The notes beneath the pieces are model-generated. The model saw nothing but the letters and a program-made list of their open reading frames with translations. It ran no database searches and had not been told where the DNA came from. This document shows positions 24,864 through 53,888 of a stretch of 64,000 nucleotides of DNA, one piece after another (position 1 is the first letter of the stretch; every line of letters starts with the position of its first letter). A program made the translations under genes and the position numbers. The DNA lies in the NCBI GenBank assembly GCA_030650275.1, contig JAUSEK010000023.1:34189-98188 (forward strand), read 5' to 3'. This DNA is from Candidatus Omnitrophota bacterium (GTDB lineage Bacteria; Omnitrophota; Gorgyraeia; Zapsychrales; Fredricksoniimonadaceae).

Positions 24864-24870
24864 CCCAAAG

Positions 24871-24900
24871 GATGTCATTCCCGCGTAGGCGGGAATCCAG
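24871..24900 (+). repeat. hairpin repeat family copy 1 (GATGTCATTCCCGC-GTAG-GCGGGAATCCAG)
   Basis: 8-bp stem ATTCCCGC/GCGGGAAT with conserved flanks; recurs at 25884 and 52266. Confidence 0.7.
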
Positions 24901-24918
24901 AACATAGAGATTAAATCA

Positions 24919-27900
24919 ATGTTTAAAAAATCCCTGAGCATTGCCCTCATTGTTGCTTTTTTCCTGACCTCCCTGGGGCCTATTCCCAAAGCTCATGCCG
25001 ACGTCCTTAATCTTCCCATCCCCGGCACCATGGTCAACTTAAGTCCTGCCTATGAGCCGGTGATGATCAAGGGCTTGACCGTCCACAAAGACAATCCCTT
25101 TTTGTTTGACTTTATCGTGGATGTGGGTGATTCAGGATTGTCCGTAGGGAACGCAGATCTGCGTTCCCTACAAGATGAATCAACCAAATTAATCAAATAT
25201 TTCCTTGCTTCTTTAGCCATTCCTGAAAAAGACCTTTGGGTCAACTTATCTCCATATGAGAAAGACCGCACCATCCCCGAAGAACTCTCCAAGACCGACA
25301 TGGGCCGTGACCTATTAGCCCAGGACTATATCCTCAAACAGATCACCGCCTCACTCATTTATCCTGAAAAGGCCTTAGGAAAAACATTCTGGGACAAGGT
25401 CTATACCAAAGCCCAACAACTCTACGGCACCACAGAAGTTCCCGTCAACACCTTCAACAAGGTCTGGATCATGGCAGACAAGGCAGAGGTGTTTGAACGC
25501 AACAACACCGCATTCGTTACCGACAGCCATCTTAAAGTAATGTTGGAAGAGGATTACCTGGCCCTTGAGCATCAAGGGCGGGTCCTGCAAAGCCACGATG
25601 GAACCCGGCCTGCTCACCAGCTCGCAGGCGCGCTAAGCGGTCCGGCTTATTCGCCGGACCAGCGCCCCGCACCACGCATGGATGCCCACACTCTGGCAAG
25701 CGACATCGTGCGTCAAATAATCCTCCCCGAACTAGAAAAAGAAGTCAACACCGGCAAGAACTTCGCTAATCTTCGTCAAATATTCAACTCCCTCATCCTT
25801 GCCTCCTGGTACAAGAAAAACCTCAAAGAAGCCCTCCTTAACCAGGTTTATTCCAATCAATCAAAGGTCAAAGGCATAGAAAGGGATGTCATTCCCGCGA
25901 AAGCGGGAATCCAATCCAAGGACGATGTGGAAGCCATCTACAACCAGTACCTTGCCGCCTACAAGAAGGGCGTGTTCAATTACATCAAAGAGGACATAGA
26001 CAAAGCCAAAGGCACGACGATACCGAGGAAGTATTTTTCGGGTGGGATGCAGATAGCTCCGCATGATGTGGCCATGACAACCGATCCGCAGAAACTGGCC
26101 AACGCCTTGCCAAAAGACAGGGCCCTGGTGTCTTTTCAAACAGGGATGATGGACCATGTTGTGGCTGTGACGCCGACACCAGACCGGGCGATGATAAACG
26201 AGATGCCGGAGAAGTTACGGGGAATATTTTTTTTCACGGACAAGGGGGCGGTCTTAAGATTGCCCCATTGGGAAAGGTTCGTCAGGGATGTTCCTGTCAA
26301 AGAAATTGATGAAATCATTGATTTTTTGGCCCCCATAATGAGGGAAAATGATTCTTACGCTTCCATAATGAGGAAAAGGCTCTCATCATCGGTGGAAGAA
26401 AGACCCAAAAGACCTTCCGGATCTCAGGAGGCTACTATTAAGAGAGTCATACTTTTATTGGCTGCGCAAGGATATTACTTCCCTGTTGGGAGCGAAAACA
26501 GTAAAGAGCCTTTTTCTGTTATGGAGATAACTTTCGACTCCGGGGCACGTAACTATTATTTGACGCTTAATGATGCGGACGGAAAACCCAGGGAAGATTT
26601 AACAGCGCAGGAGAGGTCAAGATTGATAGGGAATGTACGAACCGCGTTAAGGCTCTTTAAAAGAGATCTTGGTGAAGCAACGTCGCTTCAGGGTAAGGAA
26701 GCGTCACGCCGATCCGATGCCCCGGACCGGGCGATGACGGCGAGGCCGGCCGCATTGGTTCAGATACCGGTAGAAATACAATTATGGATCAATGTATCGG
26801 CTGGCAGCGCCAGGCCTGAAAAATGGATTCCATCGGAAACGGTTGTGGCGGAAATGACCGACATGATTGAAGGCGTTTCACCCCAAAGGTCCGAATCAGG
26901 AAGGATCCGTGCCTGGGTGGACCGTACAAAAGAAAAACTCAGTCAAGAAAAACGCGATCCATTAATAGGGTTGAGAGAAGCGATTTCCATGACTGGATCT
27001 TCGCCGGACCAGCCCATATCCAGCAAATTGAGATCCACGGTCAAAAGACGAGTTTTTCTTCATGTCTCGTCCATTCCCGGGGATGAGCGGACTTCGCCTG
27101 AAACCGTTATTGCCGTCATCAATGAGATGATCAGCAAACAGGTTCCTCTTATGGATGAAACGTCAGATTCGATTCGGCAGTGGGTGAGGTCGCAACAACA
27201 AAGATATCCCGGTGATCAAGAAGAACAACTTGTGCAATTGCGGGAAGGTATTACCCGTGCTGTCGCAGCCGCCGCCCCGGACCGGGCGATGGTGGGCAAG
27301 CCACGGACATTGGATGGAATGATGGATCTTGAAGTTGCACGCATGGTGGTACGAATCAAGCGGTCTATGGAGCTCGTAGAAAGAACAATGGAGAGCGCAG
27401 GCAGGATTGTGCGGTGGTATTCCACAAATAAAAGCGGGTTGACCCCGCAAAGCATAGGAAGCCTTCAGGAGGCGCACACAATATTAGAGTATTATTTGGC
27501 TATATGGAAAATAGATTTAGAAAAATTGGAAACTGTTTTTACGGGTTCTTCCCCGGAAGATTATCAGACCATTGCACCGGCCCTACGCGCCGATATCCGG
27601 CAGGCGAGATCATTAATAGAGAGAATAGCATCCTTACTTCCCAGAGAAAGCGCTGTAGCACCGGACCAGGCGATGATGGGACCGAACCAGCCCAGGTCGC
27701 AGAGCGAAGCCTTGAACATGGCCCTTCAAATCCTGGATCATATTACTGGCACGGATTATCAAAATGCCAAGAGGATTCTTTTTGAAAAGATCCTTGAATT
27801 AAAATTTGGGGCGTTCGGTGAGGCAGTGGTTATCAAGGACCCGCAGCACATCCTTCCTTTATTTGAACTGACCAGAATAGATCCGCCCAGGGCCGAGATC

Positions 27901-28446: not shown

Positions 28447-29310
28447 ATGAAGAAGTTAGGTTTAACGGTTTTATTGTTGAGTGCTGTTTGTGCCGGCGCC
28501 TTGCCGGTTTGGTCAGCAGAGGCCTATAATTTCGGTGATTACCGTTCGGTCACCCTGATCTCCAAAGCGTGGCCGGCGCTGGAAAAAGGCGACATTGAGG
28601 CGGTGTTGGCCTACACCAACAAATGCATTGAGCTGTACGCACAGCAGGCCCGCCAGATGCAAGCCGGGCTGAAAGATTATGTCACGGGGCCCACCAAGGA
28701 CGACACTTTCAATTTGTGGGCGCTCAATGACGTGGCCGCCGCTTATTACATCCAGGGCGAGGCCTACCGCAGGGCCAACATGAAAGCCGAATCCAAAGAG
28801 GCCTTCAGCAAATTGATCAATGAATATTCTTTCGGGCAGGTCTGGGACCCCAAGGGTTGGTTCTGGAAACCCGCCGAGGCCGCCAAGGAAAAGATCGCCA
28901 TGGCCGAGGCCGGCGTGAACGTGGATTTCGGTGATTATACGTCCGCCCAGTTGACGTTAAAAGCATGGACCGCTCTGGCCGCCAATGACCTCAACGCGGT
29001 CGTGATCTATACGAACAAGGTCCTGGAACTTTATGCGCCCAAGGCCAAGGAGATGCAGGCCTCTTTGAAAGAATATGCCTGGGAAAGCAAAGAGAGCACC
29101 TTCAGTTATTGGGCGCTTAATGACGTCGGGACCGCTTTGTTCATCCAGGGCGAGGCCTACCGTAGCGCCGGCAAGAAAAAGGAAGCCGCCGAGGCCTACA
29201 AGAAGGTCATCAACGAGTATTTTTACGCCCAGTGCTGGGACCCGGCTGGCTGGTTCTGGAAACCCGCCGAAGTTGCCCAACAGAAGTTAAGTGAATTGGA
29301 TAATGTTTAG
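28447..29310 (+). CDS. secreted protein made of two tandem ~125-aa WDPxGWFWKPAE-domain repeats
   Basis: SD GGAGG 8 nt upstream of ATG 28447; signal peptide; internal duplication (NFGDYRSVTL...WDPKGWFWKPAEAA and DFGDYTSAQL...WDPAGWFWKPAEVA). Confidence 0.65.
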   Translation: MKKLGLTVLLLSAVCAGALPVWSAEAYNFGDYRSVTLISKAWPALEKGDIEAVLAYTNKCIELYAQQARQMQAGLKDYVTGPTKDDTFNLWALNDVAAAYYIQGEAYRRANMKAESKEAFSKLINEYSFGQVWDPKGWFWKPAEAAKEKIAMAEAGVNVDFGDYTSAQLTLKAWTALAANDLNAVVIYTNKVLELYAPKAKEMQASLKEYAWESKESTFSYWALNDVGTALFIQGEAYRSAGKKKEAAEAYKKVINEYFYAQCWDPAGWFWKPAEVAQQKLSELDNV

Positions 29311-47492: not shown

Positions 47493-47566
47493 TCGGGGGA
47501 CAGGGATTCGAACCCTGGACCTCTTGCTCCCAAAGCAAGCGCGCTAGCCAACTGCGCTATCCCCCG
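47493..47566 (-). tRNA. tRNA-Pro (anticodon UGG)
   Basis: Manual fold of reverse complement: 7-bp acceptor CGGGGGA/UCCCCCG, D stem GCGC, anticodon stem CUUGC/GCAAG, loop UUUGGGA, T stem CAGGG/CCCUG, discriminator A; CCA not encoded. Confidence 0.85.
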
Positions 47567-49900: not shown

Positions 49901-51453
49901 TGCGCGACCGTGTCCTGACGATCCTCCTGCTTGTTTTTCTGTTCGGCCTGTTCGCCGCGGACCTGGCCCGGCCCATCAATTTGACGGCGGTGGACATCGG
50001 CCGTCACGTCAAGAACGGGGAACTTCTCCTGCAGGGGCAATGGGACCTCCTGCACAGGAATTTTTATTCCTTCACGCATCCCGATCATCCGTTCATCAAC
50101 CATCACTGGCTGTTCGGTGTCCTGTCCTACGGCGTGCATCAATGCGCCGGGTTCACGGGCCTGTCCATCGTTTATATCGGGGTATTGCTGGGGGCTTTGT
50201 TCTTTTTTTTGCGCGCGGCCGCTTTGCGCGGACATTTCGCGCTGGCCATCTTTTTCGCGTTTTTGTCCCTGCCCATTCTGGCCGACCGACGGGAGATACG
50301 CCCCGAGGGGTTAAGCCTTTTATTCATGGGGCTGTATTTTTATCTGTTGACCAAACTGTCTTTGGGGCAGGTCCGGCAACGGACGGTCTTGATCATTTTG
50401 GGAATAACGCAGGTCATTTGGGTCAATACCCATATTTTCTTTTTTATGGGGCCGTTGCTGACGGCGATATTCTTGTGGGAAGGGTATGCGCGCAAATGCA
50501 GTGTATGTGTGCGCGCCCTGTGGCCTTTGCTGATCCTGCTGTCGGCGGTCGATCTCATTAACCCCTCGGGATTGGCCGGCGCCTTGACGCCGTTGAACAT
50601 TTTTAAGGAATTCGGATACCGTCTTGCGGAAAATCAGACGGTGTTTTTTATGATGGACCGTTTCCCGGGCCAGAAGGAATACGCGTATTATCTGGGGCTG
50701 GTCCTCGTTGCCGTCGTCGGGATCATTTTGGCCGTGCGCGCGCGGGGATGGAAGGCCAACGCGCCGTTCATTCTGCTGGCCGTGTTCGCGGCCTGCGCCG
50801 GCCTTAAAGCCGTGCGCCTGATGACGCCCTTCGCGTTTTTTCTGGTCCCGCTGGGGTCTTTTTTTTACGGCCAGGCCGAGGGGAAGTTACCGCCAAAAAT
50901 ACAGAAAACCATCCGCGTATTTTTGCTCGCCGCCGCCCTCGTCCTGGGCGTTATCCAGGCGTCGGGTTTGCGCAACAGCCCCATCGGTGTGGGTCTGGCC
51001 CCCGGGGTGAATGTGTCAGCGGAGTTTTTCAAGCAAACCGGCATCCAAGGGCCGGTGTTCAGCAATTACGATATCGGCGGATATTTGATCTATCATTTGT
51101 ACGGCCGGGAGCCGGTGTTCGTGGACAATCGGCAGGAGGCCTTCCCGCCGGAATTTTTTAAGGGAACGTATGTCCCGATGCAGGAGGACAAAGAGGTCTG
51201 GAAAAAAGCGGACGGCCGCTGGGGGTTTAACGCGGTGTATTTTTACCGGCATGACCTGACCCCGTGGGGACAGGCCTTCCTTGTCCGGCTGGTGGACGAC
51301 CCGGACTGGGCCCCGGTGTTCGTGGATGGATATACGATCATTTTTTTAAAACGCAACGGCCCCAACCAGCGCGTCATTGACCGTTTCCAACTGCCGCGGT
51401 CCATGTTTTCGGCGTCCGGCCCCGCCGTTGGCGGGGCTGGACAGGCCGGATGA
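49900..51453 (+). CDS. polytopic membrane protein, possible GT-C-fold glycosyltransferase
   Basis: About 11 TM helices plus periplasmic C-terminal domain; ATG overlaps ptsP stop (TAATG); family uncertain. Confidence 0.4.
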   Translation: MRDRVLTILLLVFLFGLFAADLARPINLTAVDIGRHVKNGELLLQGQWDLLHRNFYSFTHPDHPFINHHWLFGVLSYGVHQCAGFTGLSIVYIGVLLGALFFFLRAAALRGHFALAIFFAFLSLPILADRREIRPEGLSLLFMGLYFYLLTKLSLGQVRQRTVLIILGITQVIWVNTHIFFFMGPLLTAIFLWEGYARKCSVCVRALWPLLILLSAVDLINPSGLAGALTPLNIFKEFGYRLAENQTVFFMMDRFPGQKEYAYYLGLVLVAVVGIILAVRARGWKANAPFILLAVFAACAGLKAVRLMTPFAFFLVPLGSFFYGQAEGKLPPKIQKTIRVFLLAAALVLGVIQASGLRNSPIGVGLAPGVNVSAEFFKQTGIQGPVFSNYDIGGYLIYHLYGREPVFVDNRQEAFPPEFFKGTYVPMQEDKEVWKKADGRWGFNAVYFYRHDLTPWGQAFLVRLVDDPDWAPVFVDGYTIIFLKRNGPNQRVIDRFQLPRSMFSASGPAVGGAGQAG

Positions 51454-51489
51454 ATTTTGTTAGGATTGAGGCCTGATTATTCAACATAT

Positions 51490-51760
51490 GCGCCTGTAGC
51501 TCAGTTGGATAGAGCAACAGCCTTCAACAGGAGCCTTCATGGGGAAAAAGAACCCATGAAGTGGACGTCGCTAAGTCGGTAGATACCCTTTAGGGGGCAA
51601 TACCGAGCTACCCAAGTGGGGAGTGTAGAGACTTTACACGGCGGGGCTGAGATGCCCAAGAGAAAGTCCGGCCAGCAACTCCCGCTTTTGCGGGACGGTT
51701 AAGGCAACTTAATGCTGGAAGCTAAGCTGTAGGTCGCACGTTCGATCCGTGCCAGGCGCG
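51490..51760 (+). tRNA. tRNA-Arg (anticodon UCU) interrupted by a group I intron between U34 and C35
   Basis: Exons 51490..51524 and 51722..51760 join to a 74-nt tRNA nearly identical to E. coli argU (AGCTCAGTTGGATAGAGCAAC...CCTTCTAAG); acceptor GCGCCTG/CAGGCGC, anticodon stem ACAGC/GCTGT, T-arm GCACG-TTCGATC-CGTGC. Confidence 0.8.
51525..51721 (+). ncRNA. 197-nt group I intron (IC3-like, similar to Azoarcus tRNA-Ile intron) without internal ORF
   Basis: Conserved core strings GUGUAGAGACU and UUAAGGCAAC, and GGCAAUACCGAGC...AAG, match the Azoarcus ribozyme; 5' exon ends in U, intron ends in G (omega-G 51721). Confidence 0.7.
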
Positions 51761-51776
51761 TTTTTTATTTAACTCG

Positions 51777-52190
51777 ATGCATCATACAAAAGATAAAGCA
51801 GATATAGGTTTTTGTAAGGTCATTACGGATCTTACGATGAAGGGGTATGTGCCATGCATACCTTTTTCAGAACATCAAGCGTTTGATCTTGTTGTGGTTG
51901 GGCGGGACGGCACCACTTTCAGGATCCAGATTAAATACTCAACATTAAGGAAGAATGGGTCTGTGGATGTCCGGTATAGGAGAAACTGGGCGGATAAGCA
52001 CGGCGTACACACCAGAATTTATTCAAAAGACGAATTCGATTATTACGCGATTTATTGTCCAGAGAAAGATGCAGTGCTTTATGTCCGTAATACTCCGGAT
52101 TGCCCGAAGTCGATCCGTTTTGATAAGCCAGCCAACAATCAGATGCGGCATATTAAATGGGCAAATGACTATTTGAAAATCAAGAAATGA
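51777..52190 (+). CDS. PD-(D/E)xK nuclease-fold protein, 16 nt downstream of the intron-containing tRNA (candidate free-standing homing-endonuclease-like gene)
   Basis: Motif order E(SEHQ)...D(FDLVVVGRDG)...IQIK consistent with PD-(D/E)xK; AT-rich, low-GC context. Confidence 0.4.
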   Translation: MHHTKDKADIGFCKVITDLTMKGYVPCIPFSEHQAFDLVVVGRDGTTFRIQIKYSTLRKNGSVDVRYRRNWADKHGVHTRIYSKDEFDYYAIYCPEKDAVLYVRNTPDCPKSIRFDKPANNQMRHIKWANDYLKIKK

Positions 52191-52265
52191 TATCAGTTGG
52201 GCGGCGTTATTCTTGTTGAGTGTTTTTGGGTTTTTTGGTAATGTATTGCCCTTTTCAGTACTGTT

Positions 52266-52297
52266 GTCATTCCCGAATGTTTCTGTCGGGAATCCAG
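52266..52297 (+). repeat. hairpin repeat family copy 3 (GTCATTCCCGA-ATGTTTCTG-TCGGGAATCCAG)
   Basis: Same conserved flanks as 24871 and 25884 copies with a different loop. Confidence 0.6.
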
Positions 52298-52402
52298 ACA
52301 CGGCTTTATCGTACAATGGTGGGTGCCCCGCATGTCTGGAATAAACATTATGGAATGCGGGACGACCAACCACTTTTTCTGGGACAAAAAAACGTAGTAA
52401 GT

Positions 52403-52480
52403 GGTGGGTGTAGCTCAGTTGGTTAGAGCGGAAGATTGTGGATCTTCAGGTCGCGGGTTCAAATCCCGTCACTCACCCCA
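52403..52480 (+). tRNA. tRNA-His (anticodon GUG), with encoded G-1 and 3' CCA
   Basis: Manual fold: G-1, acceptor GTGGGTG/CACTCAC (one G:U), D stem GCTC/GAGC, anticodon stem GAAGA/TCTTC, loop UUGUGGA, discriminator C73. Confidence 0.85.
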
Positions 52481-52558
52481 TTTTGACCCTTAATCTGTTA
52501 TAAGGAGCATTGAATTTTGCCTTGACATATGTCAGGATGTAACATAAGATGTTAAATT

Positions 52559-53776
52559 ATGACAATCTATCAACCGCGTGAAATTACGAAAACATTAATT
52601 GAGTCGCTTGAAAACATGCCAGTGGTGGTGCTTTCCGGAATGCGCCAGACGGGTAAAAGCACCCTTCTTTTAAACCAGCCGCAATTAAAGAAAAGAAGGT
52701 ATGTCAGCTTCGATGATTTTAACACTCTCGAATTAGCCCGCAGTAATCCGGAGGAGCTCCTGTCCGGTAAAGAACCCATTACTATTGATGAAGCGCAAAA
52801 GTATCCTGAGATCTTAAATGTTATCAAGAAAGAAGTGGATAGAAATCGCAAGCCCGGGAGATTTCTCTTAAGCGGATCGGCTAATTTCTTGCTCCTTAAA
52901 AAAGTCGCCGAAAGCCTGGCTGGCAGGGCAGTCTATATGACTCTTCATCCATTTACTCGAAGGGAAATGTTAGGGGTTATTAAAGAAAAACCGGCCCTCG
53001 CGTGTTTTATTGATACCGGCGCGTTTCCTAAACGTGAAATCAATCCTGTTTCGTTAAAGGAAATCTTAAAAGGCGGTATGCCTTCCGTATGCCTTGGCCA
53101 GGTAAAAAAGCCAGAGGTGTGGTTTCGCGGCTATGAACAAACATATCTGGAGCGTGATATACGCTCCTTAGCTCAAGTGGCGGATTTGGTATCATTTCGA
53201 AATCTTTTGCATCTGGTGGCTCTTCGGAATACAAAGATCTTAAACATAAGTGAGCTTGCTCGTGACGCGAAACTAAACGTTGTCACTGCCTCGCGCTATC
53301 TTTCGCTTATGGAAGCTTCATTTATTTTAAGCCGAGTTCAGCCCCATTTTAAAAATAAAACAACCCGGCTTATTAAATCTCCTAAAGTATATTTATCCGA
53401 TACAGGGCTGTCCGCTTACCTTGAGGAGATCAAAGATTCAAATGTAAACGAGATGGCAAGAGGGGCGTTGTTGGAAAGTTACGTGGCGCAGAATTTAGAG
53501 GGAATATTTTCCGCTTATTATCCCGACGCGAAGATTACCTATTGGAATATTCAAGGCAGATACGAGGTCGATTTTATTATAGAGGTGGGTGGCAAAACGC
53601 TCGCGATTGAAGTAAAAAGCGGCAGCCGGTGGAAAGAAAGCGATCTGGCAGGCATAAAAGCGTATTTAGCCAGCAATAAAGAATGCCTTGGCGGATTATT
53701 GGCTTACAATGGCCGCGATGTTTTAAGGCTTGGCAAAAACATATGGGCTGTTCCGGTTAATTTATTGTTAAGTTAG
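52559..53776 (+). CDS. AAA+ ATPase with C-terminal DUF4143-type domain
   Basis: Walker A GMRQTGKST; architecture typical of the AAA_14 plus DUF4143 family; lower-GC gene. Confidence 0.65.
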   Translation: MTIYQPREITKTLIESLENMPVVVLSGMRQTGKSTLLLNQPQLKKRRYVSFDDFNTLELARSNPEELLSGKEPITIDEAQKYPEILNVIKKEVDRNRKPGRFLLSGSANFLLLKKVAESLAGRAVYMTLHPFTRREMLGVIKEKPALACFIDTGAFPKREINPVSLKEILKGGMPSVCLGQVKKPEVWFRGYEQTYLERDIRSLAQVADLVSFRNLLHLVALRNTKILNISELARDAKLNVVTASRYLSLMEASFILSRVQPHFKNKTTRLIKSPKVYLSDTGLSAYLEEIKDSNVNEMARGALLESYVAQNLEGIFSAYYPDAKITYWNIQGRYEVDFIIEVGGKTLAIEVKSGSRWKESDLAGIKAYLASNKECLGGLLAYNGRDVLRLGKNIWAVPVNLLLS

Positions 53777-53888
53777 CCCAATGTTAAGAGGCCATTAAAC
53801 AGGCCTGCCTGCCGTCAGGCAGGTTCTGACCTGTTTGAGCCAGCGACCCCCCAGTAATTTTCAGCAAAGAGGAATGGAGTTTTAAAAA

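Follow-up and report, generated by a model that had tools for sequence, protein, structure and literature searches.

A compact group I intron in a bacterial tRNA-Arg(UCU) gene and the free-standing endonuclease beside it: a likely case of collaborative homing

A tRNA-Arg(UCU) gene in the window (the whole 64,000-nt stretch of DNA analysed here) is split by a 197-nt insert and closely followed by a 137-aa ORF, and the question is what the insert is and whether the two work as a pair. When 51490-51524 and 51722-51760 were joined, the spliced sequence was called as a 74-nt tRNA-Arg(tct) with a canonical cloverleaf, and ARAGORN run with its intron option on the raw window returned tRNA-Arg(tct) with a 197-nt intron. 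By sequence reading the splice boundaries are unique: no other pair puts a U last in exon 1 and a G last in the intron. This functional-looking gene is missed by default tRNA finders and Rfam: default ARAGORN and the Rfam tRNA model reported tRNA-Pro and tRNA-His alone. The original prediction had placed exons of 35 and 39 nt, splicing into a canonical 74-nt tRNA, around an insert between U34 and C35 that ends in G, with the 137-aa ORF sixteen nt downstream (51777-52190) in an AT-rich stretch and a hairpin and tRNA-His following; all of this was recovered, the GC content falling from about 0.56 to 0.40-0.45 from 51700 on. Its description of the tRNA as almost identical to E. coli argU went too far: the E. 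coli tRNA-Arg most similar to the spliced tRNA matches it at 82.4% over 74 nt. The features of the locus are the following.

51438-51466, + strand: promoter-like candidate TGGACA-17-TAGGAT, with TG, 24 nt 5' of the tRNA (consensus scan)
51490-51524, + strand: tRNA-Arg(UCU) exon 1, 35 nt, ending ...GCCUU with U34 (sequence, ARAGORN)
51525-51721, + strand: group I intron, 197 nt, without ORF, between nucleotides 34 and 35, ending ...GGAAG (lineage model, sequence)
51722-51760, + strand: tRNA-Arg(UCU) exon 2, 39 nt, starting CUAAGCUGU, CCA unencoded (sequence, ARAGORN)
51761-51776, + strand: T-rich 16-nt spacer TTTTTTATTTAACTCG between tRNA-Arg and the ORF (sequence)
51777-52190, + strand: endonuclease gene, 137 aa, PF11645 (PDDEXK_5, I-Ssp6803I family; Pfam, fold, residues)
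52266-52297, + strand: REP-like hairpin GTCATTCCCG...CGGGAATCCA, 'copy 3' of the original prediction, in the spacer 5' of tRNA-His (sequence)
52404-52480, + strand: tRNA-His(GUG), conserved downstream neighbour (ARAGORN, Rfam)

The gene order tRNA-Pro, tRNA-Arg, tRNA-His is repeated in related loci. Promoter-like sites were not more numerous in the consensus scan than in shuffled sequence, and the weak terminator-like signal called at 51748-51760 with the T run behind it was at chance level.

The insert was folded by applying RNAalifold to 13 short homologues and then mapping the alignment of a covariance model built from homologues (R1) onto the window. Unless stated otherwise, the elements below are placed by model alignment and sequence.

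51522-51524/51531-51533, + strand: P1, exon C-U-U with guide GAG
51529-51530/51722-51723, + strand: P10, guide AG with exon CU (placed by eye, outside the counted structure)
51535-51543/51553-51561, + strand: P2
51566-51570/51639-51643, + strand: P3
51576-51581/51601-51606, + strand: P4
51586-51597, + strand: P5
51607-51624, + strand: P6
51628 (G) and 51630-51633/51665-51669, + strand: P7, with bulged A51629
51644-51647/51654-51657, + strand: P8
51672-51676/51714-51718, + strand: P9
51680-51695, + strand: P9a (placed by eye, outside the counted structure)
51699-51712, + strand: P9b, with GCAA loop
51721, + strand: terminal G (omega G; sequence)

The P4-P6 and P3-P8 domains, the P3/P7 pseudoknot and the guanosine pocket of P7 were thus all placed in the window. 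The last exon U pairs as a U-G wobble with the guide sequence, as expected from the suggestion that the 5' exon ...GCCUU pairs with an internal guide, and G51721 lies directly before the 3' splice site. Of the homologous sequences, 100 have U-G at the splice site and 10 have U-A. In 103 of the 120 listed related loci a G stands immediately ahead of CUAA together with the complementary anticodon-stem strand, a count that is not independent because the search itself required the G. The R1 score of the window, 192 bits, falls among those of the other members.

Covariation supports most of this fold. Across 117 homologous matches, 96.4% of the cells of P1-P9 including the P7 pseudoknot were paired, a figure inflated because the alignment was fitted to the model structure, and 45 of 48 pairs showed two-sided compensatory changes. 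This bias was countered in two ways: slid controls gave 34-41% of cells paired, and RNAalifold, given a plain MAFFT alignment of the 13 short members that was not structure-fitted, recovered P2, P3, P4, P5, P6, P8 and P9 with compensatory changes in 30 of 50 pairs. Even in L121, a near-identical strain, one P2 pair differs by compensatory change (U-A to C-G). P7 is near-invariant (GC 92/94), and covariation therefore tells little about it. Two RNAalifold proposals were rejected, namely a pairing of GUGGA (J2/3) with UCCA (3' strand of P7), in favour of the canonical P7, and a P1 register CCU/AGG, in favour of the register that gives the U-G splice-site pair; covariation cannot choose here because the columns concerned are invariant, and general knowledge of group I introns favours the canonical P7 and the U-G pair. 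The single-sequence MFE fold of the pre-tRNA gave z = -4.6 and was left out of the helix assignment because a pseudoknot cannot be represented in it. On its sequence and fold, the insert at 51525-51721 belongs to the small IC3 group I introns of bacterial tRNA genes and would be spliced from the pre-tRNA, and the original prediction of a small ORF-less group I intron holds.

Rfam did not find it. Intron_gpI (RF00028) gave no match in the window at its gathering score, and none at E <= 10 on 1.1 kb or on 291 nt. In a control the same model recognised 1 of 18 clear homologous introns and missed 17, the one that passed (L045) scoring 55.2 bits where 50 is required, so the miss is uninformative. 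The RF00028 seeds are non-bacterial according to Williams 2020 (bioRxiv 10.1101/2020.01.27.920355). Of the core elements that the original prediction expected a covariance model to place, RF00028 places none and the lineage-specific model places every one.

Splicing has been demonstrated experimentally for tRNA-Leu introns, whereas that of the Arg(UCU) intron here is predicted. The tRNA-Leu(UAA) introns (Table S5, PMC13011429) have the same 34/35 site, the same three-pair P1 (CUU/GAG) and the same order from P2 to P9, and in both the anticodon stem of the exons can hold the splice sites together; they differ in host tRNA, and the periphery in the window is different and much shorter. The Azoarcus tRNA-Ile(CAU) IC3 ribozyme is likewise small, ORF-less and of similar size, and shares the J6/7-P7 string GUAGAGACU and the P4-side string GGCAA..CCGAG with the window intron. 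Its P1 is CAU/GUG and its site is 36/37, as against 34/35 in the window. Two of the core strings that had been matched to Azoarcus, GUAGAGACU and GGCAAUACCGAG, are real core and also occur in tRNA introns labelled IC3 in Table S5 of PMC13011429. The third, UUAAGGCAAC, lies here in the peripheral P9b hairpin; its Azoarcus counterpart presumably sits in another element, and the match is probably not positional. The label 'Azoarcus-like' fits only loosely; the introns closest to this one also interrupt tRNA-Arg(UCU), and site and P1 are those of tRNA-Leu(UAA).

An Arg(UCU) host had been thought unusual, which it is not. A 2026 mSystems survey (PMC13011429, Table S5) catalogues introns at 34/35 of Arg(TCT) from Bacillota, Bacteroidota, Campylobacterota and Desulfobacterota; it labels almost all of them IC3, and PF11645 genes are present in some. 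The class is probably also among the 17 new classes of Williams 2020 (bioRxiv 10.1101/2020.01.27.920355). Our genome scan returned at least 120 Arg(UCU) intron loci in genomes labelled with many phyla, and in 103 of them the intron was cleanly delimited, with lengths of 191-675 nt. The window intron belongs to this lineage by its 34/35 insertion, its UCU anticodon and its homology to catalogued members, with which it shares tRNA, insertion site, core and the 5' leader ...CCUU/YAA..AGGAGCCU..(P2)..AGUGGAYR (the slash marking the splice site). Some Table S5 members likewise come with a PF11645 gene. The window intron differs in being among the shortest of the lineage (197 nt), in having a core of a separate sub-type ('type W') that occurs in Omnitrophota-like loci, and in that the endonuclease gene lies outside it. 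The intron class is thus already catalogued and very widespread, and the displaced endonuclease is the less-described arrangement.

The protein encoded at 51777-52190 matched Pfam PF11645 over its full length (residues 2-133 against profile positions 1-136 of 138) with E = 1.1e-28 and 100.4 bits (cut-off 26.1), and matched the sequence of PDB 2OST with E = 0.006. An AlphaFold2 model (pLDDT 87.6) had 2OST as its top Foldseek match (E = 1.2e-8, TM 0.74). Fold and the acidic and QxK residues of a PD-(D/E)xK nuclease are present, with D9, D37 and Q51-x-K53 conserved; across 33 homologues D9, Q51 and K53 never vary, and D37 occurs in at least 90%. We take these four residues to be catalytic, from the structure of I-Ssp6803I and the 2OST alignment. 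By sequence and model, the ORF encodes a free-standing member of the I-Ssp6803I family of PD-(D/E)xK endonucleases, with predicted activity, which is what the original prediction had proposed. A look-up of the exact 137-aa sequence returned no record. No obvious Shine-Dalgarno sequence lies in the 16-nt spacer 51761-51776, and expression of the ORF is uncertain because of this missing ribosome-binding site and the T run after the tRNA.

I-Ssp6803I itself (PDB 2OST), from the Synechocystis tRNA-fMet intron, shares with the window protein the PF11645 family, the fold (TM 0.74) and the D...QxK motif, and is likewise tied to an intron in a tRNA anticodon loop. The presumed target in the window, the DNA of the anticodon stem-loop, is pseudo-palindromic, as is the 23-bp I-Ssp6803I site. 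The two proteins are about 22% identical and belong to different tRNAs and sites (33/34 for I-Ssp6803I, 34/35 here), and I-Ssp6803I is encoded in its intron, whereas the window ORF starts exactly 16 nt past the tRNA, outside the intron, and its activity is predicted.

The association of this endonuclease family with the Arg(UCU) intron is close. The 31 close metagenomic homologues were chosen by protein and independently of the intron, and every one of them lies in or beside this intron. Among the 103 listed loci, searched over the fetched locus of up to 8 kb, the endonuclease was inside the intron in 28, and 14 had it on the tRNA's strand further downstream; none was found in 61, and in none of the 103 was it upstream or on the opposite strand. 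The free-standing layout is therefore seen in the window, in five closely related metagenomic loci (among them L121, L124, L127 and L131) and in 14 of the 103 listed genome loci. These four named loci (98, 75, 72 and 70% identity) repeat the order of intron-bearing tRNA, endonuclease 7-40 nt on, and tRNA-His. Most relatives instead have the gene within the intron, in loop L6; this holds for those no more than 66% identical and for L128 at 72%. Purifying selection on the endonuclease is strong: dN/dS is 0.07-0.11, and among the free-standing copies 68-90% of synonymous sites differ against 12-18% of nonsynonymous sites.

Taken together, the locus is best read as an ORF-less IC3-type intron in tRNA-Arg(UCU) that would be homed collaboratively by the linked free-standing endonuclease, a reading to which we give a probability of about 0.72. 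By established group I chemistry, the pre-tRNA would self-splice: guide GAG (51531-51533) would pair with exon CUU, leaving the U-G wobble at the cleavage site, and free guanosine in the P7 pocket would attack the 5' splice site. The terminal G51721 would then replace the guanosine in the pocket, and the 5' exon, kept beside the 3' exon by the short P10, would attack the 3' splice site, giving a normal 74-nt tRNA. By analogy, the endonuclease would cut tRNA-Arg(UCU) alleles that lack the intron, in the DNA of their unsplit anticodon region, and repair from the donor would copy the intron along with the endonuclease gene tightly linked to it; its own allele would be immune because the intron splits the target site. 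That the target is the intron insertion site we infer from homology to the intron-encoded copies.

The window thus has the layout of collaborative homing, an ORF-less intron with a free-standing endonuclease adjoining the interrupted gene, for which two phage systems are documented (PMC3984707). The same layout, an ORF-less or defunct-ORF intron with an adjoining free-standing endonuclease, is found in the phage pairs F-CphI/psbA intron (cyanophage S-PM2), I-TslI/DNA polymerase intron (T7-like phage) and mobE/I-TevIII (T4) (PMC3984707, PMC2790892, PMC6083498). Unlike these, the window pair lies on a bacterial chromosome, in a tRNA gene, and uses the PD-(D/E)xK family, and its target convergence is putative. 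Its lineage also has homologous endonucleases inside and outside one intron lineage, which is absent from the phage cases.

A further reading, tentative and at somewhat under even odds, is that the endonuclease moved repeatedly between loop L6 and the site 3' of the tRNA while still homing the 'ORF-less' intron in trans. Internal and outside copies at orthologous loci are both under purifying selection, and neighbour-joining support bearing on the inside/outside transitions is moderate (78-82%). The window and each free-standing locus gave a single full-length R1 match, and the R1 search of these sequences found no intron halves flanking the free-standing gene as remnants of relocation. A clean empty site was not found, because in L019 and L057, relatives without the endonuclease, the spacer between tRNA-Arg and tRNA-His is filled by an unrelated gene for a membrane protein of 290-350 aa. 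In the literature searched we found no description of an endonuclease displaced to just past the tRNA.

An unlikely alternative is a free-standing selfish endonuclease gene with intronless homing of its own, aimed at the tRNA-Arg/tRNA-His spacer or another site in genomes without it, its adjacency to the intron being history and not function. Phage free-standing endonucleases that mobilise themselves and their flanks are well known (PMC3984707), the distance from the tRNA is not constant (7-40 nt in the Omnitrophota-like clade against 96-1670 nt in Bacillota), and one distant homologue, L162, abuts tRNA-Ser with no intron detected. Yet all 19 sampled free-standing copies lie downstream of an intron-bearing tRNA-Arg(UCU) on the same strand, and introns of that same tRNA encode their nearest relatives; it is simpler to assume that they have kept a specificity for the Arg(UCU) anticodon region. 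It is less probable again that the endonuclease has lost homing and been domesticated, to the advantage of host or intron, for example as a maturase-like splicing helper, a repair nuclease of the tRNA locus or a defence nuclease. Strong purifying selection across saturated synonymous divergence is unusual for a cycle of gain, decay and loss and would fit such a role, as would a weak fold likeness to the nuclease domain of the SPARDA defence system (E about 0.008-0.05). Against it, PADLOC returned the generic 'homing endonuclease' model alone, the catalytic D...D...QxK residues are retained, as expected of a protein that is still a nuclease, and 61 of the 103 listed loci keep the intron with no endonuclease found in up to 8 kb fetched, so splicing does not depend on it; we know of no maturase activity in the PF11645 family. 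That the insert is a dead remnant in a pseudogene, another tRNA copy doing the work, is very improbable: the missing Rfam match, the view limited to 64 kb of the genome and at least one relative (L021) with an intron-less tRNA-Arg(UCU) copy beside the interrupted one (ARAGORN) would allow it, but all core helices, the U-G pair and the terminal G are intact, 96% of cells are paired in the 117 homologous matches, compensatory change occurs even between near-identical strains (L121) and the exons give a perfect cloverleaf.

With collaborative homing as the preferred reading, the interest of the locus lies in the pair, as the intron alone adds one further member to a catalogued, widespread lineage. 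The 2026 survey sought endonuclease genes only within introns that exceed 500 bp in length, and concluded that most tRNA introns are without one and that horizontal transfer is therefore limited (PMC13011429). A cognate endonuclease lies directly downstream in 14 of the 75 listed Arg(UCU) introns without an internal copy, so this conclusion may understate mobility. If the endonuclease does act in trans from outside, a sizeable share of the 'endonuclease-less', 'immobile' bacterial tRNA introns would be mobile, and L128 compared with the window and L127, one syntenic locus, would form a natural series for the assembly or disassembly of a mobile intron. Endonucleases inside and outside the intron at orthologous loci also offer a testable counterpart, on bacterial chromosomes, of the phage 'collaborative homing' model for the formation of mobile introns. 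The REP-like hairpin at 52266-52297 has related copies at 24867-24899 and 25881-25913 and is probably outside the intron/endonuclease system.

The tRNA-Arg(UCU) gene of the window is interrupted, and both ARAGORN at default settings and Rfam's model for tRNA missed it, calling just tRNA-Pro and tRNA-His. With its intron option, ARAGORN returned tRNA-Arg(tct) with a 197-nt intron from the raw window. The features of the locus are as follows.

47493-47566, minus strand: tRNA-Pro
51438-51466, plus strand: candidate promoter-like site, not above chance
51490-51524, plus strand: tRNA-Arg(UCU) exon 1, GCGCCUGUAGCUCAGUUGGAUAGAGCAACAGCCUU
51525-51721, plus strand: insert between the exons, 197 nt, ending in G
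51722-51760, plus strand: tRNA-Arg(UCU) exon 2, CUAAGCUGUAGGUCGCACGUUCGAUCCGUGCCAGGCGCG
51777-52190, plus strand: endonuclease ORF, 137 aa, starting 16 nt past tRNA-Arg
52404-52480, plus strand: tRNA-His
52559-53776: AAA_14/DUF4143 ATPase gene, 405 aa

The joined exons gave a 74-nt tRNA-Arg(tct) with a regular cloverleaf and the anticodon loop CU-UCU-AA, and the insertion point lies between U34 and C35, as the original prediction had it. The boundary is unique: only here does a U precede the 5' splice site while a G precedes the 3' splice site. Identity to E. coli tRNA-Arg was 82.4% for the spliced product, and its description as almost identical to argU was too strong.

The Rfam Intron_gpI model found no match in the window, not even when a 291-nt slice was scanned at E ≤ 10. 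Taken alone, this speaks against the group I intron of the original prediction, but the same model at gathering score detected just 1 of 18 homologous introns (L045, 55.2 bits). The miss is therefore a sensitivity problem, in agreement with a statement in Williams 2020 (bioRxiv 10.1101/2020.01.27.920355) that the model's seeds include no bacterial sequence. When the window and 12 short homologues were aligned with MAFFT, RNAalifold recovered P2, P3, P4, P5, P6, P8, P9 and P9b, with 30 of 50 predicted pairs preserved through two-sided changes (plain alignment, 13 sequences). The P3/P7 pseudoknot is beyond RNAalifold, and its alternative P7 pairing was replaced by the canonical P7 (plus strand; G51628, bulged A51629 and GACU 51630-33 with AGUCC 51665-69). 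R1, the covariance model derived from this alignment, scored 192 bits on the window and matched about 70 ORF-less loci at full length and ORF-bearing loci in split form. Across 117 matches, 96.4% of the cells in the full P1-P9 structure were paired, 45 of 48 pairs showed two-sided changes, and the covariation score was 0.374 against 0.03-0.06 with partners slid by 1-3 columns; this alignment was fitted to the model and is biased towards pairing, while the slid controls and the 13-sequence fold speak for a real signal. The splice-site pair was U-G in 100 of these sequences. In the guide sequence 5'-AG|GAG-3', GAG pairs with exon CUU to form P1 and the neighbouring AG can pair with exon 2 nucleotides 1-2 to form P10, a canonical layout. 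P2 carries a compensatory U-A to C-G change between the window and the near-identical metagenomic strain L121. On this comparative evidence the insert is a genuine, ORF-less group I intron, and presumably catalytic.

The Arg(UCU) host, earlier thought unusual, proved common. A pattern scan (CCTTYAA..AGGAGCCT..AGTGGAYR; one genome per species) found at least 120 loci, and the labels of the listed records include Bacillota, Bacteroidota, Omnitrophota, Planctomycetia, Deltaproteobacteria, Patescibacteria, Anaerolineales and others; of the 120 loci listed, 103 had an exon 2 that could be matched, with introns of 191-675 nt. 'Arg (TCT) 34/35' introns also appear in a 2026 mSystems survey of 4,934 complete genomes (PMC13011429). 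It labels nearly all of them IC3, reports them from Bacillota, Bacteroidota, Campylobacterota and Desulfobacterota, and notes PF11645 endonuclease genes inside those of Bacteroidota and Campylobacterota. The proposed Azoarcus likeness holds only loosely, as the Azoarcus tRNA-Ile intron sits at 36/37 with another P1. The window intron instead has the 34/35 site and the CUU/GAG P1 of the classical tRNA-Leu(UAA) intron (Leu entries, PMC13011429). It is an ordinary representative of a lineage that is known and widespread. In Sporosarcina soli (L021, 4956-5514, minus strand) an uninterrupted tRNA-Arg(tct) lies immediately upstream of the intron-containing copy, so some genomes carry both alleles in tandem.

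The adjacent ORF is of the I-Ssp6803I type, as predicted. It matched PF11645 (PDDEXK_5) over its full length (E = 1.1e-28) and I-Ssp6803I (2OST) by sequence (E = 0.006), and its AlphaFold2 model (pLDDT 87.6) had I-Ssp6803I as best PDB match (E = 1.2e-8, TM 0.74), with SPARDA nuclease domains and Hjc resolvase far weaker. Among 33 homologues D9, Q51 and K53 were invariant and D37 nearly so. PADLOC returned solely a generic 'homing endonuclease' model, and NCBI titles close homologues 'group I intron-associated PD-(D/E)XK endonuclease [Candidatus Omnitrophota bacterium]'. The free-standing copies show no decay, since synonymous sites are saturated (pS 0.68-0.90), pN is low (0.12-0.18) and dN/dS is 0.07-0.11 where computable.

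The window departs from the catalogued Arg(UCU) cases in the position of this gene. Among the 103 complete-intron loci, from the 120 listed, the endonuclease lay inside the intron in 28 (127-166 nt from the 5' splice site in full-length copies, in loop L6), downstream of the tRNA on the same strand in 14 (96-1670 nt away), and upstream or on the opposite strand in none; 61 had no homologue in the retrieved stretch of up to 8 kb. All 31 metagenomic relatives retrieved by protein (identity ≥ 56%) lay in or beside an Arg(UCU) intron. The window and its closest relatives share one layout, in which the tRNA carries an ORF-less intron, the endonuclease gene follows after 7-40 nt, and tRNA-His comes next. 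The gene is outside in homologues P0001 (98% identity; L121-L123), P0002 (75%; L124-L126) and P0005 (72%; L127) and in the L131 copy (70%), and inside L6 in P0006 (72%; L128, an Omnitrophica MAG) and the remaining 30 metagenomic relatives (each ≤ 66%). L128 is the locus orthologous to the window's, with the same tRNA-Pro (minus strand), tRNA-His and GAF/PEP-utilising enzyme, the last 72% identical to the window's 749-aa ORF. These shared neighbours also point to an Omnitrophota-like bacterium as the source of the window. In a neighbour-joining tree (200 bootstraps), the five free-standing copies grouped with L128 in a clade (78%) that nests within the intron-encoded copies, L127 (outside) paired with L128 (inside) at 82%, and the five outside copies alone were monophyletic in just 2% of replicates. 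Separate free-standing copies occurred within Bacteroidota and Bacillota branches. Position therefore changed more than once, in a direction that bootstrap support does not fix. The free-standing cognate endonuclease, of which no description turned up in the literature searched, is a variant that recurs across phyla.

The window and the 98%-related L121 were near-identical over the tRNA, endonuclease gene and spacer, with no difference over 51630-51829, and 25 of their 87 differences lay in 80 intron nt (P2-P6; window 51550-51629, L121 255-345), with P5 and P6 in effect replaced. This stretch resembles a patch of recombination within the intron. Comparison of window 51525-51721 with L128, L014, L002, L112, L045, L019, L057 and L027 revealed two core types in Omnitrophota-like loci (P7-P3'-P8 identity 93-100% within the window's type, 57-69% between types). 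The window's type accompanies all five free-standing endonucleases, and the other type all three of the intron-encoded ones compared (L128, L014, L002). In the P9 domain, however, the window and L128 are 88% identical, so the introns are mosaics. Many intron-encoded copies (L128 3001-3408; 152-aa homologues such as P0007, P0021 and P0044) read through P6', P7, P3', P8 and J8/7 of the ribozyme core to a tail ...ESSETIRHTPEMVKT whose stop is the UAG of AUAGUCC, and protein and catalytic RNA thus share the same bases. Free-standing copies lack this tail.

Collaborative (trans) homing would probably explain these facts; it is described for two phage systems, where an ORF-less intron and a free-standing endonuclease share one target site (PMC3984707). 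Judged from its intron-encoded homologues and from I-Ssp6803I, a tetramer with a 23-bp pseudo-palindromic binding site, the enzyme would recognise the uninterrupted, partly palindromic anticodon stem-loop DNA (ACAGCCUU|CUAAGCUGU), a predicted target split by the resident intron. A cut intron-less allele would be repaired from a window-type donor, and intron and endonuclease gene would be copied together because both lie within ~250 bp. The strictly downstream, same-strand placement suggests that the gene depends on tRNA transcription. We infer this mechanism as a whole for the locus.

GC content falls from ~0.56 to 0.40-0.45 over window 51700-53800, spanning the endonuclease, tRNA-His and ATPase genes, and this block may be horizontally acquired and larger than the endonuclease gene alone. 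The hairpin repeat noticed originally is REP-like, GTCATTCCCG-(loop)-CGGGAATCCA, with at least three copies (24867-24899, 25881-25913 and 52266-52297). L127, of free-standing layout, has a second nuclease-family gene, a 96-aa GIY-YIG (PF01541) ORF (2470-2760) ending within the tRNA-Arg gene, in its 5' part. At L162, in an AT-rich, phage-like context, a distant PF11645-like homologue (1501-1991, 31% identity) ends 6 nt ahead of a tRNA-Ser(GCU) gene, where neither R1 nor Rfam found an intron. Elsewhere in the window, 199-nt direct repeats (28695-28893 and 29088-29286; 73% identical, 393 nt apart) are probably repeated domains in one gene.
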